Source of the DNA: Patescibacteria group bacterium
Lineage (GTDB): Bacteria; Patescibacteriota; Microgenomatia; UBA12405
Length of the DNA stretch: 54,348 nucleotides
Direction: 5' to 3'
Assembly: GCA_038062455.1 (NCBI GenBank)
Contig: JBBTXE010000001.1
Span: 316,371 to 370,718, forward strand
Both the position numbers and the translations under genes were made by a program. Under the pieces are notes generated by a model, which was not told the DNA's origin, did not search any database, and worked only from the letters and a program-made list of their open reading frames with translations. Positions within the stretch are counted from its first letter, which is position 1, and each line of letters begins with the position of its first letter. Shown here one piece after another: positions 43,343 through 50,559 of this stretch.

Positions 43343-44395
43343 CCTTTCATAAACACCTGCTGATTTTGCCTTATTTACGGTAATTAGGTTGCAAATATTT
43401 TTCAATTCTTGATTACTCAAACCCACACTTTTTAATTCCTCCTCTGAGGCTTTTAATGGCATTTTCGGCCCTCCCAAAAATGTCCCCGTCCAATTACAGC
43501 GAATACAAACCTTATTCAATTTATCTCCAAAAAATTTTCTAATAAAACGATGTAATTCCTCGTCTACCACCTGATTTTTATTCGCCGTCGGGTAAGGGGA
43601 ATAATATCGCAAAGGTTTGGTACTTTCCAAAAGAGCACTGCAACAACCACCCACAAACTTAATTCCCATTTCTTGACAAGCCAAACTAATCACCCTCATC
43701 CCAAAAGCGGTGGCCATTGGGGCAATTGTCACTACCGTCTTGGGAACACAACCAATATTTAACAGTTCCTCCAACATTTTAACATGCTGCATCCCTGAAG
43801 CTACCGGATCACTAATATATAAAACTTCCAAATTTATTAAATTGAAACCTTCCAAATTAGGCTTAACCGACAATTGCGATTCTCGGGTATAGATATTCCC
43901 TGCCGCCTTGTGACTCATCGCCACAATTGTTGAGGGAATATTTTTCTTTTCATCCACCAAATAAACTGCCCTTTGCCAATTAGTTAAATGACCCTCCCTA
44001 GCAAAATAAATTATTCCCGAATTATCAGCATTCGACTTTTCAATTAGCTCTCTCATCTTCGGACTATTGGCCAACTGATACATAGCTACTTCCATATCTA
44101 ATTGTGCCAACGGTCCAAAGTGATACCTTGGTAAAACAAATTTATTATCATGATCAAAACCTCCCGCACCGCTAATAATTTCCATTTCCGGACTGGAAAC
44201 TGCCACTACTCCCATTGCTTCCATAAAAGCAAACTCGCTTTTTTCCCCCAAAACAGACAAATAAATCCGGTGATTTTTTATTCGGTATTTACCCCTTACC
44301 CCAATTCCAACTATTTCACTTAATTGTTCTTCTTCGACCTGCGCCGCAATTTTAAAAAAAATACTTTGTTTATTTCCAGGTTGATTATCTGTCAT
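43304..44395 (-). CDS. Divergent type I phosphoribosyltransferase (UPRT-like)
   Basis: YFAREG and LYISDPVASG...PKTVVTIAPMAT resemble the UPRT ILRAG and VDPMLATG motifs. Confidence 0.5.
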   Translation of the reverse strand: MTDNQPGNKQSIFFKIAAQVEEEQLSEIVGIGVRGKYRIKNHRIYLSVLGEKSEFAFMEAMGVVAVSSPEMEIISGAGGFDHDNKFVLPRYHFGPLAQLDMEVAMYQLANSPKMRELIEKSNADNSGIIYFAREGHLTNWQRAVYLVDEKKNIPSTIVAMSHKAAGNIYTRESQLSVKPNLEGFNLINLEVLYISDPVASGMQHVKMLEELLNIGCVPKTVVTIAPMATAFGMRVISLACQEMGIKFVGGCCSALLESTKPLRYYSPYPTANKNQVVDEELHRFIRKFFGDKLNKVCIRCNWTGTFLGGPKMPLKASEEELKSVGLSNQELKNICNLITVNKAKSAGVYERLIPYSTRLLQKE

Positions 44396-44445
44396 CCTGA
44401 AATTCCATTTTAACAGAATTTATATCCCACCACAATCAAATAATT

Positions 44446-44454
44446 TGATAAAAT
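44446..44454 (+). promoter_or_regulatory. Extended -10 promoter (TGATAAAAT), probably the original tRNA-Glu promoter
   Basis: Ends 9 nt before the first tRNA 5'-like fragment at 44464. Confidence 0.5.
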
Positions 44455-44463
44455 ATCAGCCAC

Positions 44464-44824
44464 GGCTCCACCGTTGCCGACCTGGCTCCATCGTTGCCGG
44501 TTGCAGCAAAGCTGCACCGAGCATTCTCGGTCCGGCTAAAGCCGAGACCGGAACTAGTGGCTTAAGCAACATGCATTGCTGTTACATTCTTAAATCCTTC
44601 ACTGATAATTCGTATTATGTGGGGTCTACCAACAACTTAACCAATCGTCTCAATTTTTACAACCGGGGAAAATCCCGATATACCAAAAGAAAAATACCTT
44701 GGGTTTTGATATACTCAGAATGCTTTTCAACCCTATCTTTGGCAAGAAAAAGGGAATATCAATTAAAGTCTTGGAAGAATAGGGATTCATTGGAAAGATT
44801 AATCAAAAAATCTGGCTCCATCGT
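44464..44824 (+). mobile_element. Putative GIY-YIG cassette inserted in the 5' end of tRNA-Glu
   Basis: CTGGCTCCATCGT at 44482-44494 is identical to 44812-44824 (tRNA 5' end); hairpin cluster and nuclease gene lie between them. Confidence 0.6.
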
Positions 44825-44828
44825 CTAG
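44571..44828 (+). CDS. Stand-alone GIY-YIG nuclease
   Basis: CYILKS..DNSYYVGSTNNLTNRL...RYTK...WVLIYSE...ARKREYQLKSWK. Start ATG 44571; stop lies inside tRNA-Glu. Confidence 0.88.
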   Translation: MHCCYILKSFTDNSYYVGSTNNLTNRLNFYNRGKSRYTKRKIPWVLIYSECFSTLSLARKREYQLKSWKNRDSLERLIKKSGSIV

Positions 44829-44887
44829 TGGCCTAGGACACCTGGCTTTCATCCAGGTAATCGGGGGTTCGACTCCCCCTGGAGTCA
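44814..44887 (+). tRNA. tRNA-Glu(TTC)
   Basis: Acceptor GGCTCCA/TGGAGTC, anticodon arm CCTGG-ctTTCat-CCAGG, T-loop TTCGACT. Confidence 0.95.
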
Positions 44888-45012
44888 CACAGAGGGAATT
44901 CGCGTCAGGACAGGGTACGCGACGCCGCGTGAGTACGGCCGCGCGAAGCGTCGCAAACGGCTTTTTTAAATCGTCCTTCAAAAAAAATGAAAACGAAAAA
45001 TTTGAGTAACAT

Positions 45013-46371
45013 ATGAAAAAATTTATTATATATTGTAGAAAATCCACAGATGAGAAAGACAAGCAGGTTTTGTCGATCGAAGCCCAGATTACCGAACTTA
45101 CCGAATATGCCAAACGAGAACGACTCGAAATAGTTGAAGTCATCAACGAAGCCAAAACCGCCAAAGTCCCCGGCCGAGAAATATTTAACCAAGTCTTGTC
45201 CAAAATCGAATCAGGTCAGGCCAACGCCATTTTATCGTGGCATCCCGACCGATTGGCTCGTAATAGTATCGATGGTGGAAAAATTATCTACCTACTTGAT
45301 ACTGGCCATCTTGTCGACCTTAAATTTCCCTCTTTTTGGTTTGAAAATACACCACAAGGCAAATTTATGCTCTCGATAGCCTTTGGCCAGTCCAAATATT
45401 ATGTCGATAATTTATCCGAGAATGTTAAACGAGGCAATCGACAAAAAATCCGAAATGGCGTTTGGCCCAACAAAGCTCCCATTGGCTACGACAATGACAG
45501 GCTAACCAAAACTATCCACATCAATCCAGAAAAAGCTAAAGCTGTCAAAAAAGCCTTCGAAATGTTTATCGCTGGTCAAACATTTACCCAACTATCCCTA
45601 TTTATGGCCAAATACGGCATTACTCGAGGTAACGGTAAACCAAAGGCCATAAACCAAGTTCGCAGAATGTTGTGTAAAAAGTTTTACATCGGCATTCTTG
45701 ATTATGGCGGTGAGAAATCAAAAGGGATTCATAAATGTTTTATTGATCGAAAGCTTTTTGACAAGGCCCAAGAACGACTCGAATATTTAAATCATCCTCG
45801 ACCTCATGGCCATTATTTTGCTTTTTCTGGATTGATGAAATGTGGGGAGTGTGGTGCTTCGATAACTGCCGAGACAAAAACCAAACATTATCTTCGCACC
45901 AATCGCGACGCTACCTACACCTATTATCGCTGTACCAAAAAACTAAAACCTTGCTCCCAGCACTATATTAACGAGTCAAAGTTAGTTGACCAGGTGGCGC
46001 AGCAAGTTAGTCTCGCCTCACTCCCCACATCGTGGGTAAAACAATGGCAGCAATGGCTAGAACGAGACAGAGTAGCCGAGGAGCAATCTGGGCAACAAAA
46101 CCTGTTGTCTTTGGACAATGATATTCAAACAATTGATCTGAAAATGGGCAAACTACTTGACGCTTACCTTGACGACACCATTGAAGAAAGCATTTACAAG
46201 AACAAAAAGAATCAATTGTTTGAAGAAAAATTAAAAATGGAAGAGAAAAAAGCCAAAACAGAGGGTTGCGGTTCGAGTTGGCTCGAACCTTTTTCTGAAT
46301 TTATTATTGGCGCACAGAATGCGCCAAATCGCGCGCGCAAAAAAGAAAATTCCGCGAAGGCGGAATTATAG
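45013..46371 (+). CDS. Large serine recombinase, C-terminus probably disrupted
   Basis: YCRKS (catalytic Ser), DRLARN, recombinase domain (APIGY), Zn ribbon CGECG...YYRC...PC, coiled coil. Confidence 0.88.
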   Translation: MKKFIIYCRKSTDEKDKQVLSIEAQITELTEYAKRERLEIVEVINEAKTAKVPGREIFNQVLSKIESGQANAILSWHPDRLARNSIDGGKIIYLLDTGHLVDLKFPSFWFENTPQGKFMLSIAFGQSKYYVDNLSENVKRGNRQKIRNGVWPNKAPIGYDNDRLTKTIHINPEKAKAVKKAFEMFIAGQTFTQLSLFMAKYGITRGNGKPKAINQVRRMLCKKFYIGILDYGGEKSKGIHKCFIDRKLFDKAQERLEYLNHPRPHGHYFAFSGLMKCGECGASITAETKTKHYLRTNRDATYTYYRCTKKLKPCSQHYINESKLVDQVAQQVSLASLPTSWVKQWQQWLERDRVAEEQSGQQNLLSLDNDIQTIDLKMGKLLDAYLDDTIEESIYKNKKNQLFEEKLKMEEKKAKTEGCGSSWLEPFSEFIIGAQNAPNRARKKENSAKAEL

Positions 46372-46571
46372 ATAACGCGAACAGCTAGGCCCACCGGTGC
46401 GGGCGGCGGGCCGACGCTGTGAGCTCAATATTTAAAAGTTATTTTTAAAAAACGTTCGAATTTCGTTATAACAGCTCACCAAAAAGGAAATCGAGTCGGA
46501 AGTGGGGGCAGCGCTGGCTGCGCCCCCCTCCGCAGACAGCGCTGCCCCTTCCACTTTTGCGATTTCCAAAA

Positions 46572-46680
46572 TGGTGAACGTTTTTGAACAAATTCGAACG
46601 CATTTCAAAGATTCGTGCTAGCTCGCCTCGCCCTGCTCGGCTCGCACTCCAGCGCGGCGCCCCCACCCGACGCGCCTCCG
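46572..46680 (+). repeat. 109-bp inverted repeat, left arm
   Basis: Reverse complement of 47654-47762 with 2 mismatches by manual comparison. Confidence 0.92.
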
Positions 46681-46907
46681 AAAAAGTCGGCTCGAACATT
46701 CCGCTGAAAGCGGAACAAAGAAAAACGCAAAAATTTTAAAGAGCTTTTATCAACTTAAATGGCGCAACCGGTGGTATCAGCAAGAATTGCGTCTCACTGT
46801 CCGATTGCGCCATTAAAAAAAGCAATTTCAATAATAACTGAGTCCAATATAACTATACTAAAAATGAACAAAAAAAGAAAGAATTTAATACTTGATTTCT
46901 AAAAAAG

Positions 46908-46916
46908 TGATATAAT
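46908..46916 (+). promoter_or_regulatory. Extended -10 promoter (TGATATAAT) for the cargo gene
   Basis: Ends 9 nt before ATG 46926. Confidence 0.6.
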
Positions 46917-46925
46917 AAACTCTAT

Positions 46926-47585
46926 ATGGAATCATTTCTTTTTGTTTTGGGAGCCTTATTCGTTGTAACGTTCGTAATACTGTATTTTTGGAGCGTTGTT
47001 TGGAGCTATAAGGATGCTTCAATTAGAGGTAAGAACGGTTTCGCGGTAGCGACTTTGGTTGCGCTGTTCGCATGGCCATTTGGTTTATTGTTTTGGACCA
47101 TCATTCGTCCTGAAAATGTTAAGCTAAAAGATAGCCCCTCGGCTATTAAAAAAAATACCCAACCTAACAAGTACATATCTGATTTTAAAGAAATGCCTTT
47201 TTTGTTAAAAATCCTTTTTCTAATTAGTGTATATTCATTCGTCACCACACTATTGAATTTTATTCAGATGAAACCTGTTGTCTTTGAGTATTTTAATACA
47301 GGATTTCCAAAAAACTTTCCTCTAATCTGGTATTCATACTACCTACTATTTAACATTTTTACGATAATAGTATATTTCAAACGATCTTATTCCGTTTTGA
47401 AAAAATATCTGTATGTAACTCTAGGCGTTTTAGTCGTTGCTTTACTTAACTCAATTTACTTCGTAATTAATCTTCCTGTAGAACAAAGATTTGCTACCAC
47501 CTTAGTGTATCTATTTACCTATATCTTTGGTGGTTTAATCTTCATATACCAACTCAAGCAAAAGAAGTATTTTAATCAAGCTTAA
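46926..47585 (+). CDS. Hypothetical polytopic membrane protein (cargo between the inverted repeats)
   Basis: About 6 hydrophobic segments; N-terminal W.YKDA..RG..G motif; own promoter and a 3' hairpin at 47612-47630. Confidence 0.75.
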   Translation: MESFLFVLGALFVVTFVILYFWSVVWSYKDASIRGKNGFAVATLVALFAWPFGLLFWTIIRPENVKLKDSPSAIKKNTQPNKYISDFKEMPFLLKILFLISVYSFVTTLLNFIQMKPVVFEYFNTGFPKNFPLIWYSYYLLFNIFTIIVYFKRSYSVLKKYLYVTLGVLVVALLNSIYFVINLPVEQRFATTLVYLFTYIFGGLIFIYQLKQKKYFNQA

Positions 47586-47653
47586 ATCTTTTTTGGACTT
47601 ATATTATTTCATTGTTTGCTTCGCAAACAAAAATCGCGCGCGCAAAAAATGAG

Positions 47654-47762
47654 CGGAGGCGCGGCGGGTGGGGGCGCCGCGCTGGAGTGCGAGCCGAGCA
47701 GGGCGAAGCGAGCTAGCACGAATCTTTGAAATGCGTTCGAATTTGTTCAAAAACGTTCACCA
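47654..47762 (-). repeat. 109-bp inverted repeat, right arm
   Basis: Reverse complement of 46572-46680. Confidence 0.92.
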
Positions 47763-47788
47763 ACTATATCCATCTGCGGTATCATTAA

Positions 47789-49570
47789 TTGATGGCAAAC
47801 GATTCTAAGTCCCTAAAAACCATTTTTAAAAACACCGCCTGGTGCCTTAGGTTAATCTATCGGAGCAATAAGGTATTATTCACTGGCGTTTTTATTTTCG
47901 GCATCTTTGTTTCCGTCGTCCCCTTTTTCCAAAACCGAGTTTTTTCCCAACTCATCGATAGTTTAGTTTATGGCCAAACTTACTGGATAACCACCTTCTT
48001 TTTGTTTATTGGTATCATGGCCCTAAACTCAACCTTTTTTTATCTTCAAAGTCAGCTAAACCGGGTTCTCGATATCCAACTTCAAGCCCATCTCCGCAAA
48101 CTATTCATCGGCAAAGTCACCACTCTTGACTATCAACACCTAGAAGGTAAGGACACTAGTAATTTAATCTCCAAAGTGGACGAAGAATTTGGCTGGCGAA
48201 TCCGCCAGACCCTTTCCGACGCCAACAGCATCTTTACCAGTCTTCTAAGCCTTCTGACTGTTTCTATAATTCTTCTACCGAAATTCCCCTTTCTTTGGTT
48301 AATTATTTTTTTAAGTCAAGTTCCTCAATACTTTTTTCAAAAACATTGGGTCCAAAAAGACTGGCAAATCCATGAGAAAAACAGCGATAAAACCAAATTA
48401 ATGTGGGATCTTAACTATCAGCTTCGCCAAAAGTTCTACATTTCTGAACTAAGAATTAACAACGCTATTAAATATCTATTCAAAAAATTTTCTGATAACT
48501 TTGATTTTTTTGCCATTTCCCGAACTACCCTTCGGATCCAACAAACCCCCACCGAATTCGGCCTGATCACCTTTTCCACCTTAATTAACGCCTTTTGTCT
48601 CTATACTCTAATTTCCAGCACCCATTCAGGTCTAATCACCATTGGCCTCTTCACCTTTTACTTCCAATCAATTACCCAAACCGGCAATTTCTTCCGGGGC
48701 CTTGTTTTTAGCTCTGTCAGTGTTACTGAAAATAGTTATCATATCGGCAACTTTAAAAAAGTACTTAATTTAAAAAATTTAATTAAAAGCGGATCCAAAC
48801 TTGTTCCTCGTCCCCACCCCCCCAAAATTGAATTTATTAACGTTAGTTTTAAATATCCCAATTCCAGCCACTATGTCTATCGCCACCTCAATCTAACCAT
48901 CAACCCTCAAGAGGAAATTGCCATTGTCGGTCAAAATGGGGCCGGTAAAAGTACTCTTATCAAACTCTTGTGTCATTTTTATGAACCCAGCTCCGGAAAA
49001 ATCCTTATCAATGGCATCGATTTAAGACAATTAAAACTCGAAAACTGGTATCACCAACTTTCCTTTTTGGCTCAAGAATTTAACAGTTTCTACAACTTAA
49101 CCCTCCGCGAAAATATATTTTTGGGCCGGCCCCAAAAAATCAACAATCAAAAAATTATGGCAGCCTTAAAACAAGCCGATGCCACCTTTATCAAAAGATA
49201 CCCCCGGAACTTAGATACTCCCATGAGCCAGCGTTATGGCGGCGAAGAACCCTCCTGGGGACAAGCCCAAAAAATTGCCATCGCCCGGGTTTTTTATCGT
49301 AATAGCCCAATAATTGTCTTAGATGAACCCACTGCTTCTATCGACGCTATTTCTGAAAGTAAAATTTTTAGCCGGCTTTATAAAACTATTAAAAACAAAA
49401 CCTTAATTATCGTCTCTCACCGTTTTTCAACTGTCAGAAACGCCCAACGGATTATCGTTATCAATCATGGTCAAATCATTGAACAGGGGACTCATCGGCA
49501 ACTTCTAGCCCTCAAAGGTCTCTACGCCCGCTCTTTTCATCTCCAAGCCAAAGGTTATACTCAAGAATAA
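47789..49570 (+). CDS. ABC exporter (fused TMD-NBD)
   Basis: TM domain, Walker A GQNGAGKST, Q-loop LAQE, variant signature PSWGQ, Walker B IIVLDEPT, H-loop VSHR. Confidence 0.92.
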   Translation: MMANDSKSLKTIFKNTAWCLRLIYRSNKVLFTGVFIFGIFVSVVPFFQNRVFSQLIDSLVYGQTYWITTFFLFIGIMALNSTFFYLQSQLNRVLDIQLQAHLRKLFIGKVTTLDYQHLEGKDTSNLISKVDEEFGWRIRQTLSDANSIFTSLLSLLTVSIILLPKFPFLWLIIFLSQVPQYFFQKHWVQKDWQIHEKNSDKTKLMWDLNYQLRQKFYISELRINNAIKYLFKKFSDNFDFFAISRTTLRIQQTPTEFGLITFSTLINAFCLYTLISSTHSGLITIGLFTFYFQSITQTGNFFRGLVFSSVSVTENSYHIGNFKKVLNLKNLIKSGSKLVPRPHPPKIEFINVSFKYPNSSHYVYRHLNLTINPQEEIAIVGQNGAGKSTLIKLLCHFYEPSSGKILINGIDLRQLKLENWYHQLSFLAQEFNSFYNLTLRENIFLGRPQKINNQKIMAALKQADATFIKRYPRNLDTPMSQRYGGEEPSWGQAQKIAIARVFYRNSPIIVLDEPTASIDAISESKIFSRLYKTIKNKTLIIVSHRFSTVRNAQRIIVINHGQIIEQGTHRQLLALKGLYARSFHLQAKGYTQE

Positions 49571-50559
49571 TGCCAAATACTTTTCAAAGTTCAATTCCTA
49601 ATAAAATTCAACAATATCTTTCAGACCAACTCCAAAGTCTGAAAAAATCTTCCAATATTAACCCTGGTTCCCAAGATCTTTCCTCTTTCATTTATCAAGC
49701 CCTAACTACTACTAAGTATCGCCGCCACTCCATTTCCCTTGAATATCAGACCCACATAAAAAACGTTATTGGTTTCTCAATAAAAAACAATCGACCTATC
49801 CCTTTAGTTTGGGTCTTTGGTTGTTACAAACTTTGGCGACTTCCAGAATCGCCTTATGTCGATTGGGCTGAGCTTTTCTTTTTAATCCATAAGGTCAATT
49901 GGCTTAGGCCTGTCCTGGAGGTATATAAACCCGGAATTTGGTTTGATTTTTTTGCCGACGGCATTGTTGTCCCACTACTAAATCATATTCCCGAATCAGA
50001 TATGGATACCTATCAAGAGAGTTTTAAAGACTTGCTGACAATTTTTGAAAAATATATACCCAAAAATTTAAAATTCACCCTACACACTCTCGAAAAACTT
50101 TATAGTTCAAAAAAAGATTTTCAAAAAGAATTTAAGACAAATTACGATATTGTTGTCCAACAAGATAAAACAAATCCTTTTATTTTATCTGACCAGCAGA
50201 AATCAGTTATCAAAATGAACGTCAAATCAGACAAAGAACTAAGTGAGGCCAAATTACATCAATCCCAATTAATTTTCGAAGCCTTTGTTTTAAGCTCTAA
50301 ACGCCGGCCATATTATCGAACCCCTGATAAAATTTTTTTGGACAGTTTTCCCATAAAAAATTGCCTTCCCATTGGCACCACCCGAACCTCCTCTGTCAGG
50401 TTTTGGGTAGGCAAGGGGGTGTTAGAAAAACACCAAGACTCATTTATAGAAACCATTCTATCTGTCAATCAAGTCCAAAACTCCCGATTCTCAAGTTGCT
50501 CTGTTAATCTCCCTGATTTTGACAACCCAAATTATAAATCGATCAGTATTTTAAAATAA
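49570..50559 (+). CDS. Divergent PvcA/Dit1 (isonitrile synthase)-like protein
   Basis: PIPLVWVFGCYK...VDWAE...VYKPG...FADG...MDTYQ parallels PvcA PIxFVLPAFPxK...PDMAE...FYAPG...CSDG...AYQ. Start overlaps the ABC stop. Confidence 0.5.
   Translation: MPNTFQSSIPNKIQQYLSDQLQSLKKSSNINPGSQDLSSFIYQALTTTKYRRHSISLEYQTHIKNVIGFSIKNNRPIPLVWVFGCYKLWRLPESPYVDWAELFFLIHKVNWLRPVLEVYKPGIWFDFFADGIVVPLLNHIPESDMDTYQESFKDLLTIFEKYIPKNLKFTLHTLEKLYSSKKDFQKEFKTNYDIVVQQDKTNPFILSDQQKSVIKMNVKSDKELSEAKLHQSQLIFEAFVLSSKRRPYYRTPDKIFLDSFPIKNCLPIGTTRTSSVRFWVGKGVLEKHQDSFIETILSVNQVQNSRFSSCSVNLPDFDNPNYKSISILK

Follow-up and report, generated by a model that had tools for sequence, protein, structure and literature searches.

The genomes of CPR/Patescibacteria are otherwise poor in recognisable mobile elements. 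The described systems close to the locus analysed here include the inversion systems (Hin, Gin, Cin and Pin, the shufflons, and the invertons of Bacteroides and Clostridioides), in which a serine recombinase gene likewise adjoins a segment flanked by inverted repeats. The invertases themselves are small, have a C-terminal helix-turn-helix and act on sites of 26-34 bp, both orientations of the segment coexist, and a promoter or a coding end spans the boundary; none of these features is shown by the present cassette, which differs in this from the Hin/Gin-type systems. The integrons (IntI, attI/attC) are similar in having small, mostly single-gene units with exchangeable, unrelated cargo and arms with conserved covarying hairpins. 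Unlike integrons, however, the family described below uses a serine and not a tyrosine recombinase, its cargo has its own promoter and leader, and it combines inverted flanking arms with docking at tRNA ends. No tyrosine recombinase was found in the region, and the two inverted arms of the cassette are of another kind than those of an integron cassette.

The large-serine-integrase elements and prophages (Listeria A118/LI, phiC31, Bxb1, SPbeta SprA, as well as SCCmec with CcrAB and Tn4451 with TnpX) have the same domain set of resolvase, recombinase and zinc ribbon, and the same precise insertion with few bases common at the junctions. Moreover, a recognition-like motif, GTTCGAA, is separated from the core by 4 bp more in the element arm than it is in the tRNA target, reminiscent of A118, in which the zinc-ribbon motif is shifted by 5 bp between attP and attB (PMC3783163). 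Unlike those elements, the present family targets the 3′ ends of many different tRNA genes, measures only 1.3-7 kb, has arms of 76-145 nt against an attP of 50 bp, keeps a complete inverted copy of the joined ends inside, places a structured leader before the cargo and has a recombinase reading frame that crosses both the P′ arm and the junction; no directionality factor was evident in the family. Finally, the dif (pdif) modules of Acinetobacter plasmids, which depend on XerC/XerD, are described as gene modules between alternating inverted sites that are shuffled among replicons (PMC13141974, PMC6449649). They are alike in being discrete gene modules bounded by recombination sites in alternating orientation, but they rely on host Xer tyrosine recombinases and 28-bp plasmid sites, as opposed to the self-encoded large serine recombinase (LSR), arms of ~110 nt and chromosomal tRNA ends found here.

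The window, i.e. the whole stretch of 54,348 nt that was analysed, had initially been annotated as containing near-perfect 109-bp inverted repeats around a promoter, a 219-aa membrane protein and a 3′ hairpin, with a serine recombinase about 200 nt upstream, and this description was borne out. The inverted repeats probably represent paired attachment arms of the P type, A′ and A, which enclose the cargo module of a small LSR-driven integrative element; the copy of this element at tRNA-Glu is decayed and in two parts.

Insertion behind tRNA-Glu and its two parts

A repeat search placed the arms at 46572-46680 and 47654-47762, each 109 nt long and separated by a spacer of 973 nt, with 107/109 positions matching (98% complementary), mismatches at the pairs 46627/47707 and 46670/47664, and a match that ended sharply at both edges. 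By our own arithmetic, the chance expectation for a 109-nt inverted repeat with two mismatches in 54 kb is <1e-45. Between them lie the ORF of 219 aa (46926-47585, + strand), preceded by an extended -10 (TGATATAAT, 46908-46916, + strand), and a hairpin (47612-47630), while the coding region of a 452-aa serine recombinase stops at 46371, 200 nt short of the left arm. Beyond what had been annotated, the region holds a third copy of the outer arm end (72%, at 46441-46493), a palindrome and a tRNA-Glu gene, and the arms themselves are a family repeat.

Both arms are contained in a single insertion of 2,872 bp (44889-47760) at the 3′ end of the target gene tRNA-Glu(UUC) (44814-44888, + strand; ARAGORN, and Rfam tRNA with 61 bits), tRNA being the only Rfam hit in a search of 44000-48500. 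The insertion consists of two stacked parts, E1 (44889-46479) and E2 (46480-47760), the latter being the reported cassette. In a congener (G006), the corresponding site is empty and tRNA-Glu is directly followed by the same ABC/PvcA operon, the gene order being rplS, tRNA-Lys, lgt, tRNA-Glu(UUC), ABC (82% identical), PvcA and holA, and the sequence reading ..GGAGTCAC|AACTGTATCC.. (the host side is also written AACTGTATCCAAACGCGGTATTATAAATT). In the window, the 3′ end of tRNA-Glu forms the left junction of the whole insertion (..GGAGTCAC|ACAGAGGG..), and the right junction with host DNA falls at 47760/47761 (..CGTTCAC|CAACTATATCCATCTGCGGTATCATTAATT), where the host flank CAACTATATCCATCTGCGGTATCATTAATT aligns with the empty site. 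The comparison of the empty site with these junctions thus revealed a precise insertion, as is characteristic of LSR-type integrative elements. The host genes for an ABC exporter and a PvcA/Dit1-like protein (47789-50559, + strand; identified by Pfam and by synteny with the congener) lie outside the element and constitute the flank that defines the empty site. A short core, (T)CAC, is common to the tRNA end, the end of the E1 arm V and the outer ends of both cassette arms, and no target-site duplication was found beyond the CA(C) core. The cassette does not fit an IS or a MITE in this respect, nor in the company of its arms, which co-occur with LSR genes and tRNA ends and not with a transposase.

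E1 begins with a P′-type arm, U (44889-44973, + strand), located between the tRNA end and the recombinase promoter; in another genome (G020), these 89 nt are found on either side of the orthologous recombinase gene as a 100% inverted pair. The LSR gene that follows (45013-46371, + strand; 452 aa, assigned by Pfam, PHROG and structure match) encodes the domains Resolvase (PF00239, 1.7e-21, residues 5-151), Recombinase (PF07508, 1.2e-12) and Zn_ribbon_recom (PF13408, 5.2e-12). The N-terminal resolvase catalytic domain has the active-site serine, and the motif YCRKSTDEKD lies near the N-terminus; furthermore, the protein matches a PHROG integrase (2e-77), and its residues 158-340 match the A118 integrase chains 4kis and 6dnw. 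The protein is truncated at the C-terminus, where it lacks the conserved tail of 45-65 aa (..GSNFFL..) present in 11 relatives, and stops six codons past a 22-nt box, M22 (CGCGCGCGCAAAAAAGAAAATT, 46330-46351, + strand). This box is the breakpoint at which the 3′ end of the recombinase gene is joined to distal-arm sequence, and both matches to G020 overlap there; as a result of this joining, E1 lost the conserved tail and the cargo. The right end of E1 is a P-type arm, V (46352-46479, + strand), which ends in a mimic of the tRNA T-loop (..CGTTCGAATTTCGTTATAACAGCTCAC) and is 97% identical to both arms of a 133-nt inverted pair around the G020 cargo, the homology stopping at 46479. The E1 LSR is an ortholog (94% at the amino acid level) of the LSR in the intact G020 element, which occupies the same tRNA in the opposite orientation. 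While in the intact family this gene is convergent with the tRNA and enclosed by an inverted pair of P′ arms, in E1 it is co-oriented with the tRNA and has a single P′ arm. E1 was also considered as a primary, 'simple' LSR cassette, which was rejected given the absence of the C-terminal tail that is conserved in the clade and encoded beyond the 22-nt box.

E2 starts with a 94-nt palindrome (46480-46573, no strand assigned) in the place of its recombinase module, composed of two head-to-head P′-arm starts fused at a shared hairpin (46494-46559), with a DNA fold of -34.9 kcal/mol (z = -8.1). Its first 69 nt match the P′ arm of another locus (L072) at 68/69 positions, and the remainder is the reverse complement of a second P′ start. 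In the 18 intact elements of the family, 1.42-1.49 kb including the recombinase gene separate such P′ arms; between those of E2 there is no LSR gene, and one would formerly have stood there before being lost. As to the origin of the palindrome, a clean internal deletion of one element was weakened as a candidate, its halves being different P′ subtypes. These are only 72% alike over the first 28 nt, compared with 95-100% for the arm pairs of intact elements, so that the simple internal deletion of one LSR gene does not fully explain the junction. Altogether, with the E1 gene truncated and a palindrome in place of the gene in E2, the insertion in the window does not encode a complete recombinase of its own.

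The arms of E2 were assigned to the P type by the repeat search and an alignment of 29 distinct arms. The left arm A′ (46572-46680, - strand) has its core ..CGTTCAC|CA at the outer (left) end, and the right arm A (47654-47762, + strand) ends in ..GCGTTCGAATTTGTTCAAAAACGTTCAC(CA). An arm profile searched with nhmmer in the window's own genome matched 46549-46699 and 47633-47772. Each of the two arms carries one private mutation with respect to the family consensus, and one of these disrupts a conserved hairpin. On the inner side of the right arm, sequence and fold define a 3′ hairpin followed by an M22-like box (47612-47649, + strand), namely TTGTTTGC-TTC-GCAAACAA and then AAATCGCGCGCGCAAAAAA; the box (47631-47649) adjoins the distal arm, as M22 matches do in other loci, where M22 recurs at the 3′ ends of modules.

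A family of small LSR elements in Patescibacteria

The same architecture was found in two further copies in the window's genome and in 16 other genomes, and the family is defined here from these 18 intact copies, which occupy 12 tRNA species with the layout tRNA, arm-recombinase-arm, arm-leader-cargo-arm, host. The LSR gene is convergent with the tRNA in all of them (18/18). Overall, 39 inverted arm pairs of 76-145 nt had a median identity of 98.9%, compared with ~77% for arms of different loci, while the spacers were constant around the LSR (1.42-1.49 kb) and variable around the cargo (0.67-5.5 kb). P-type arms are characterized by two GC hairpins, a T-loop mimic and a terminal CAC, and form an inverted pair around the cargo, an anatomy that the window arms share. 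In particular, every P arm imitates the tRNA T-loop with its outermost 27 nt, which copy it and end in CAC, the core common with the tRNA end, and homology among the 29 distinct arms, both window arms included, ceases right after CAC. Hairpin 2 of the arms varies by compensatory changes. The alignment also showed a fixed orientation of the cargo, the inner flank on the leader side being paired with the P′ outer flank in 14/14 arms and that on the M22 (3′-box) side with the host flank in 14/15 arms. E2 agrees with this family rule, with the leader at the LSR-side arm and the 22-nt box at the distal arm, but it departs from the rule of an LSR gene convergent with the tRNA between an inverted P′ pair, of which only the fused P′ starts are present. 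Given this, together with the co-oriented LSR and the single P′ arm of E1, the window copy is a decayed derivative and not an intact member.

These elements constitute a widespread small mobile element of Patescibacteria for which no description was found in a full-text search of the literature. Arm or leader DNA was detected in 117 of the 401 genomes of the class (103 of 294 genera), and an exact 27-mer occurs in MAGs named Woese-, Ames-, Roizman- and Dojkabacteria and WWE3. In groundwater metagenomes, the arms were 10-30 times deeper than their flanks and had many different continuations. The search for the arms in other genomes, proposed initially as a check, returned the same arms around unrelated cargo in many of them.

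The family inserts at the extreme 3′ end of tRNA genes, and in the proposed mechanism the LSR would catalyse this step, with strand exchange within the TCAC core. In an intact copy, the tRNA is followed by a first module, in which two P′ arms, the second of them inverted, enclose the convergent LSR gene, and then by a second module, in which an inverted P arm precedes the structured leader, the cargo, the 22-nt box and a further P arm that borders on the host. The element thus holds an internal back-to-front copy of its joined ends, and each module is bracketed by inverted repeats of ~100 nt. At the window locus, two units are stacked behind tRNA-Glu(UUC). In the presumed order of rearrangements, E1 would be a rearranged LSR unit whose gene became linked to a distal arm at the 22-nt box, and E2 a unit with its LSR module reduced to the palindrome. 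The reported cassette would then be a stranded, non-autonomous cargo module that keeps its leader, promoter and gene, immobile at present, and any movement would require an LSR supplied in trans. Excision of both units would leave the joint tRNA-Glu..GTCAC|CAACTATATCC, excision of E2 alone would leave V..CTCAC|CAACTATATCC, and a circular form would carry the joint R-arm..GTTCAC|CAAAAAGG. In contigs from eight groundwater runs, which end inside the arms, none of these joints was seen, nor a circle, an excised site or the alternative orientation.

If the family works in this way, it would give the ultra-small CPR/Patescibacteria a major route of gene flow that has not been reported so far, with ~29% of the sampled genomes of the class carrying arm or leader DNA. 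Moreover, serine integrases that read the universal tRNA T-loop and acceptor end and have an attachment site in their own coding end would, if real, bear on site choice, directionality and genome engineering. As regards the annotation of the window, tRNA-Glu and the ABC/PvcA operon are separated by 2.9 kb of foreign and partly decayed DNA, and the 219-aa membrane protein is an accessory cargo outside that operon. On a broader and more tentative level, Patescibacteria may possess a system that corresponds to integrons and dif modules but works with a serine recombinase. In such a system, a self-mobile LSR with a reading frame that runs across the attachment site could capture self-expressed single-gene modules with ~110-nt arms mimicking tRNA ends, and could stack and exchange them at the 3′ ends of tRNA genes. 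The 105-nt motif at the head of every cargo module might then be an integral functional part, either as a leader RNA with a regulatory role or as a folded nucleic acid that serves recombination as cofactor or site, and the arm pairs might be working sites rather than scars.

Inversion, present mobility and assembly

The initial annotation had left the choice between an invertible switch and a mobile gene cassette, of which the second has gained from the empty site in the congener, from the same arms around unrelated cargo and from the presence of the cargo family in other cassette systems. As an active switch, the 1.19-kb segment would be flipped by the neighbouring or another genomic serine recombinase, giving a phase-variable membrane protein or altered read-through into the ABC/PvcA genes, which is improbable. 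It is true that a serine recombinase adjoins long inverted repeats, that two inverted CAC cores bound the segment, so that recombination there would presumably invert it without altering the junctions, and that near-identical arms fit ongoing recombination between them; should their identity (~99%) be kept by gene conversion via homologous recombination, occasional inversion would be expected. The orthologous LSR segment is also oppositely oriented to tRNA-Glu in G020 compared with the window and a further genome (G007), which implies module inversion at least on an evolutionary time scale. Nevertheless, the orientation of cargo and LSR is constant across the family in the proportions given above, the repeats are 109 nt long with the core at their outer ends and are not short crossover sites, and the empty site identifies the whole region as an insertion. 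The adjoining enzyme is an integrase-type LSR and not a Hin/Gin-type invertase, belongs to the adjoining module, is truncated and has its own arms of another subtype, while the cassette's own recombinase gene is missing. Furthermore, the promoter, the leader and the whole ORF lie inside the arms, and inversion would uncouple neither promoter nor coding end, so that flipping would not switch the gene. Read-through into the ABC/PvcA genes, which the initial annotation had tied to inversion, may occur, but would not require any flipping.

A module that is still mobile, consisting of units bounded by inverted att-like sites and moved or swapped in trans by full-length family LSRs of the genome or of incoming elements, like the Acinetobacter dif modules, appears somewhat less improbable than a switch, though unlikely. 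Unrelated cargo lies between conserved arms, and LSR modules 82-88% identical in DNA occupy different tRNAs with non-alignable cargo; cargo cassettes without LSR and with the same leader and arm are found at tRNA ends (L068, L073, L080 and L112). In addition, a locus in the window's own genome (L005) has a third module beyond arm A, and its inverted repeat runs past the core into a P′ fragment, from which it follows that att-like sites alternate in orientation. The same genome has two full-length family LSRs (L005 and L007; 55-56% identical), but the arms of these resident LSRs are of other subtypes with weak similarity to those of the cassette, whose private mutations, including the broken hairpin, resemble decay; no intermediate of an exchange was observed.

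That the assembly produced the arrangement, or that a dispersed structural repeat with no relation to recombinases (such as a REP- or MITE-like terminator element) flanks the gene by chance, is very hard to sustain. The arms have a high copy number in the community, the contigs of independent assemblies from eight groundwater runs (assembled contigs, not raw reads) break inside them, and a single arm folds no better than its shuffles (z = -0.66 and +1.43), but the same layout appears in closed or near-closed single-contig genomes of ~1 Mb (G186, G209 and G265), the arms are always accompanied by an LSR, a tRNA end or a leader, and the junctions are precise at CAC without duplication of the target beyond the core. 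Both objections, which had been raised with the initial annotation, are thereby disfavoured.

Leader, promoter and cargo

The leader starts next to the left arm (46681-46751, + strand) with a box (AAAAAGTCGGCTCGAAC), a hairpin (TTCCGCTGAAAGCGGAA) and a second box (GAAAAACGCAAAAATTTTAAAGAGC), as established by an alignment of 23 leaders; a related box, and pieces of the leader, were also found upstream of recombinase genes. It is followed by a 105-nt structured motif (46752-46856, + strand) with helices P1, P2 and P3 in pseudoknot order. Compensatory changes were observed in 21 of its 30 pairs, and 89% of cells were paired compared with 27-42% in slid controls, a value reached by none of 500 shuffles. 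A covariance model of the motif found 32 copies in the 51 sources searched, training sequences included, with the window match (103 bits) covering exactly the 105 nt, and nhmmer detected five copies in the window's own genome; there was no match in Rfam. At the level of the aligned sequences, the leader thus covaries and would be a candidate new RNA or DNA motif with hundreds of potential copies.

The extended -10, read from the sequence, ends shortly before the cargo gene (10 nt before the ATG) and is likely the cargo promoter. It is retained in L121, the closest relative of the cargo, and corresponds to a TATAAT column in the leader alignment; the hexamer TTGATT (46892-46897) lies only 13 nt upstream of it, and a simple promoter scan did not call this promoter. 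The membrane protein is probably expressed constitutively from the cassette.

The cargo is all-helical, and its AlphaFold2 model (pLDDT 79) has eight helices and no PDB fold match at E <1; searches of Pfam, PHROGs, PADLOC and NCBIfam for its function gave no match. No homologue was found in 132 genomes of the taxonomic order, its relatives being present in metagenomes only. These comprise 27 proteins with 46-74% identity and one 130-aa fragment identical to the cargo, and they share 33 invariant residues. The cargo is a conserved multi-pass membrane protein that is also found in other cassette systems or mobile contexts; in two of these loci (L095 and L122) its relatives belong to cassette arrays with a repeated unit between the cassettes, as in integrons.

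The inverted repeat and its insertion behind tRNA-Glu

The repeat search of the window placed two arms of 109 nt at positions 46572-46680 and 47654-47762, separated by a spacer of 973 nt and complementary at 107 of the 109 positions (mismatches at 46627/47707 and 46670/47664), with a similarity that stopped abruptly at both ends; such a repeat cannot be chance. The near-perfect inverted arms with two differences described in the initial annotation were thus confirmed, as were the elements enclosed by them, namely an extended -10 box (TGATATAAT, 46908-46916) read from the sequence, an ORF of 219 codons (46926-47585) and a 3′ hairpin (47612-47630) read from the sequence and its fold. The serine recombinase placed about 200 nt upstream was also verified: the protein has 452 aa, carries Resolvase, Recombinase and Zn_ribbon_recom domains and ends 200 nt ahead of the left arm. 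Moreover, two features that had gone unnoticed were found: a tRNA-Glu(UUC) gene (44814-44888) directly upstream of the recombinase gene, and a third copy of the outer 40-50 nt of the arm (46441-46493, 72% identity).

The genome holding the window (665 kb, 41% G+C) has a congener (G006) with the gene order rplS - tRNA-Lys - lgt - tRNA-Glu(UUC) - ABC exporter - PvcA-like - holA, where the ABC exporter gene, 82% identical to that of the window, appeared directly after tRNA-Glu. The empty site in G006 was ..GGAGTCAC|AACTGTATCCAAACGCGGTATTATAAATT, while in the window the left junction was ..GGAGTCAC|ACAGAGGG.. and the right one ..CGTTCAC|CAACTATATCCATCTGCGGTATCATTAATT. Positions 44889-47760 (2,872 bp) are therefore foreign DNA, placed exactly behind C72-A73-C74 of the tRNA and with CAC repeated at its right-hand end.

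At positions 47756-47785, the end of the right arm and the host flank together formed a promoter-like TTCACC-18 nt-TATCAT ahead of the ABC exporter gene, and the tRNA end (GTCAC) occupied the same position in the G006 empty site. Since the tRNA end and the arm end share this position, the tRNA-mimicking arm may preserve a signal given by the tRNA end. Another occupancy of the tRNA-Glu/ABC site is found in a further congener (locus L117, 1-380; G019:C15), with an arm end (..CAAAAACGTTCAC), a small GIY-YIG-like gene, the 3′ part of tRNA-Glu and the same ABC gene.

A two-module family of recombinase elements at tRNA ends

The anatomy of the arms was obtained from an alignment of 29 distinct arms and is described here starting from the inside. 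The innermost part was a GC hairpin (GCGCGGCG-GGTGGGGG-CGCCGCGC) that was invariant, followed by a second hairpin varying among elements through compensatory changes and by an outer A+T-rich stretch (GAAATGCGTTCGAATTTGTTCAAAAACGTTCAC) with tRNA T-loop sequence inside, and the similarity between arms stopped directly after CAC. When the inner flank of such an arm (type P) was the leader (AAAAAGTCGGCTCGAAC..), its outer neighbour was an arm of a second type (P′, starting with CA[A/T]4-5GGAAATCG.. and having its own hairpin) in 14 out of 14 cases; when it was a 22-nt box (M22, AATCGCGCGCGCAAAAAA), unrelated host DNA lay outside in 14 out of 15. According to these contexts, the integrated element is arranged as tRNA|P′ - LSR (convergent) - P′(inverted)|P(inverted) - leader - cargo - M22 - P|host, where LSR is the large serine recombinase. 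At the internal P′|P junction, the sequence that the joined ends would have is repeated in inverted form, and for this reason each module seems bracketed by inverted repeats. Furthermore, the stretch from the T-loop-like GTTCGAA to the end of CAC measured 26 nt in the arms vs. 22 nt in genuine tRNAs. Such a shift of 4 bp is reminiscent of that of A118 integrase, whose zinc-ribbon motif is shifted 5 bp between attP and attB (PMC3783163), and is a lead rather than a result. Catalysis by the LSR, the position of the crossover and the present mobility of the element are points that we infer.

Two more loci of the same genome shared this layout, with an LSR paralogue (55-56% identical) inside a near-perfect inverted pair of 76-100 nt that started at a tRNA 3′ end (Ser-TGA and Lys-CTT, respectively) and was abutted by another inverted pair, of 86-171 nt, enclosing a segment that varied. 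The layout recurred in genomes G020 and G026 and in those found via arm DNA. A total of 18 intact copies were counted at 12 tRNA species, the targets listed being Arg-TCG, Arg-GCG, Lys-TTT, Lys-CTT, Leu-CAG, Leu-TAG, Tyr, Phe, Trp, Glu-TTC, Glu-CTC, Gln-TTG and Ser-TGA. The spacer between arms was constant in the LSR module (1.42-1.49 kb) and ranged from 0.67 to 5.5 kb in the cargo module. The median identity within the inverted pairs (n=39) was 98.9%, vs. only about 77% for arms from different elements. Paired arms may either be homogenised by recombination, with inverted isomers being counter-selected, or be re-made in each transfer. Arm or leader DNA appeared in 117 of the 401 sampled genomes of the class (103 of 294 genera). 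In the groundwater metagenomes holding the organism, which were examined as contigs that stop within arms, the arms were 10-30 times deeper than their flanks and continued into many different sequences.

The inverted arms beside a serine recombinase had initially been read as either an invertible switch or a mobile gene cassette. Evidence against the switch came from the orientation of the modules, which was fixed for the cargo in all elements examined and for the LSR in 18 out of 18 intact elements, as well as from the location of promoter, leader and ORF, all of them inside the arms. Moreover, the neighbouring enzyme is of the integrase type (PHROG integrase, 2e-77), being similar to the A118 integrase structure, CcrB and XisF, and the cassette has no enzyme of its own. 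The mobile gene cassette was supported by the empty site in G006, by units devoid of LSR and arranged as tRNA|P′ - leader - gene - M22 - P|host (loci L068, L073, L080 and L112), and by the several other contexts in which the 219-aa protein family was found. The arm sequence was also present in other genomes with different cargo, and LSR modules 82-88% identical at the DNA level appeared at different tRNAs with wholly non-aligning cargo.

Among known systems, LSR-driven integrative elements were the nearest to the family in mechanism, and integron cassettes were alike in logic, as were the dif modules of Acinetobacter plasmids, which lie between inverted sites in the accounts drawn on here (PMC13141974, PMC6449649). 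By membership tests, the element belonged neither to the invertase/inverton class nor to the integrons or the IS/MITE class, and full-text literature searches gave no account of LSR cassette elements located at tRNA ends of Patescibacteria.

Some loci departed from the common layout. A third module beyond the distal arm was observed in the window's own genome (L005, 4154-5760; G000:C4:24153-25759), with the leader motif, a 406-aa Cys-rich secreted protein and the 22-nt box. The inverted repeat of this locus (171 nt) reached 37 nt beyond the core, into a fragment of P′, and thus att-like sites alternate in orientation along it. In locus L029 (5800-7586; G007:C194), the orthologous recombinase lay between two convergent tRNA-Glu genes (UUC and CUC) with the same arm joined to each, which resembles the outcome of recombination between the internal site and another tRNA gene. 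Finally, the tRNA cluster beside the recombinase element at tRNA-Lys(CTT) included an ARAGORN tRNA with anticodon CUA (labelled tRNA-Pyl; L007, 8511-8586; G000:C1:386511-386586), which may represent either an amber suppressor or a wrong call.

The stacked units of the window

The copy in the window is a decayed composite of two units, E1 (44889-46479) and E2 (46480-47760), the latter being the reported cassette, and it provides a clean empty site, shows a breakpoint at the 22-nt box and allows leader covariation to be tested formally. The LSR of E1 was 94% identical to that of G020, whose intact element occupies the same tRNA-Glu with the LSR in the opposite orientation. The window gene tracked the G020 gene as far as the 22-nt box CGCGCGCGCAAAAAAGAAAATT (46330-46351), past which it matched the sequence following the same box at the far cargo end in G020 (CCGCGAAGGCGGAATTATAG..CAGCTCAC). 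In 11 relatives, the LSR tail past the box comprised 45-65 residues with a conserved ..NxGSNFFL..F..L.A.., partly encoded by the P′ arm; the window LSR had six unrelated codons and then a stop. Given this switch at the box and the missing tail, E1 is a rearranged, truncated LSR unit with its cargo lost, which would have originated by an arm-to-arm inversion plus a deletion between two boxes. The LSR gene (45013-46371) was cut exactly at this (CG)4-A6 box, which also ends cargo modules and looks like a recurrent breakpoint. In addition, the leader began with 17-21 nt (AAAAAGTCGGCTCGAAC) that resembled the LSR stretch encoding the conserved ..VGSNFF.. tail (46584-46739 vs. LSR tails), and a recombinase 3′ end may be the source of this part of the leader.

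E2 started at the tRNA-like end of the E1 arm (..CAGCTCAC|CAAAAAGGAAATCG). Over its first 69 nt, 68 positions agreed with an intact element's P′ arm, the match extending through the hairpin stem CAGCGCTGC; from there, E2 continued reverse-complementary to a second P′ start and then directly as the left arm. Between the P′ arms, where intact elements have the LSR gene, E2 presented just a 94-nt palindrome (DNA fold z = -8.1). Its history is more complex than a single clean deletion, given that the palindrome's halves belong to different P′ subtypes and are 72% alike. No LSR with matching arms is present in the window's genome (86% complete).

The structured leader and the cargo protein

The leader extends over 245 nt from the left arm to the ATG and was conserved in 23 distinct copies. 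Its core (46752-46856, 105 nt) comprised three helices in pseudoknot order, P1 (TGGCGCAACCGG / CCGATTGCGCCA), P2 (TGGnnTCAGC / GCTGAnnCCA) and P3 (GAATTGCG / CGCAATTC), with two-sided changes at 21 of 30 pairs. Moreover, 89% of cells were paired vs. 27-42% with partners slid, and the observed values were reached in none of 500 shuffles. The covariance model recovered 32 copies in the 51 sources searched, a count that includes the 21 training sequences, and every copy lay at the head of a cargo module in cargo sense, also in the distant element L093; no match to the motif was found in Rfam. The G·U pairs of P3 favoured the cargo-sense strand, and one conserved C·A of P1 would be U·G on the opposite strand, so that either strand may form the motif, as RNA or single-stranded DNA. 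A conserved TATAAT was present downstream, so, instead of being the cargo 5′ UTR, the motif may be transcribed separately or act at the DNA level. The window's genome had five copies (46752-46856; L005 4154-4255 and 8541-8642; L006 6914-7017; L007 6436-6539), each at the head of a cargo gene, that of L006 being near tRNA-Ala with no recombinase nearby.

The predicted structure of the 219-aa protein (pLDDT 79) had eight helices, with a modelled N-terminal membrane domain of two to three helices bearing an invariant W..W...DA..(R)GK.G motif, followed by a disordered linker and four long C-terminal helices; family and structure searches gave no family or fold match. A total of 27 relatives at 46-74% identity were found, together with a 130-aa fragment that was identical to the window protein. 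They appeared in combination with another arm subtype after the same leader motif (L121), in the distant LSR element at tRNA-Ser (L093), in direct-repeat cassette arrays (L095, L122 at tRNA-Asn and L126 at tRNA-Glu) and, in one case, as a plain chromosomal gene (L125). The protein behaves as accessory, horizontally moving cargo. The arrays (L095 1413-8445, L122 3419-4589 and L126 1895-2265) consisted of one-gene units with direct repeats of 45-157 nt between them, and two of them (Asn and Glu) started at a tRNA 3′ end.
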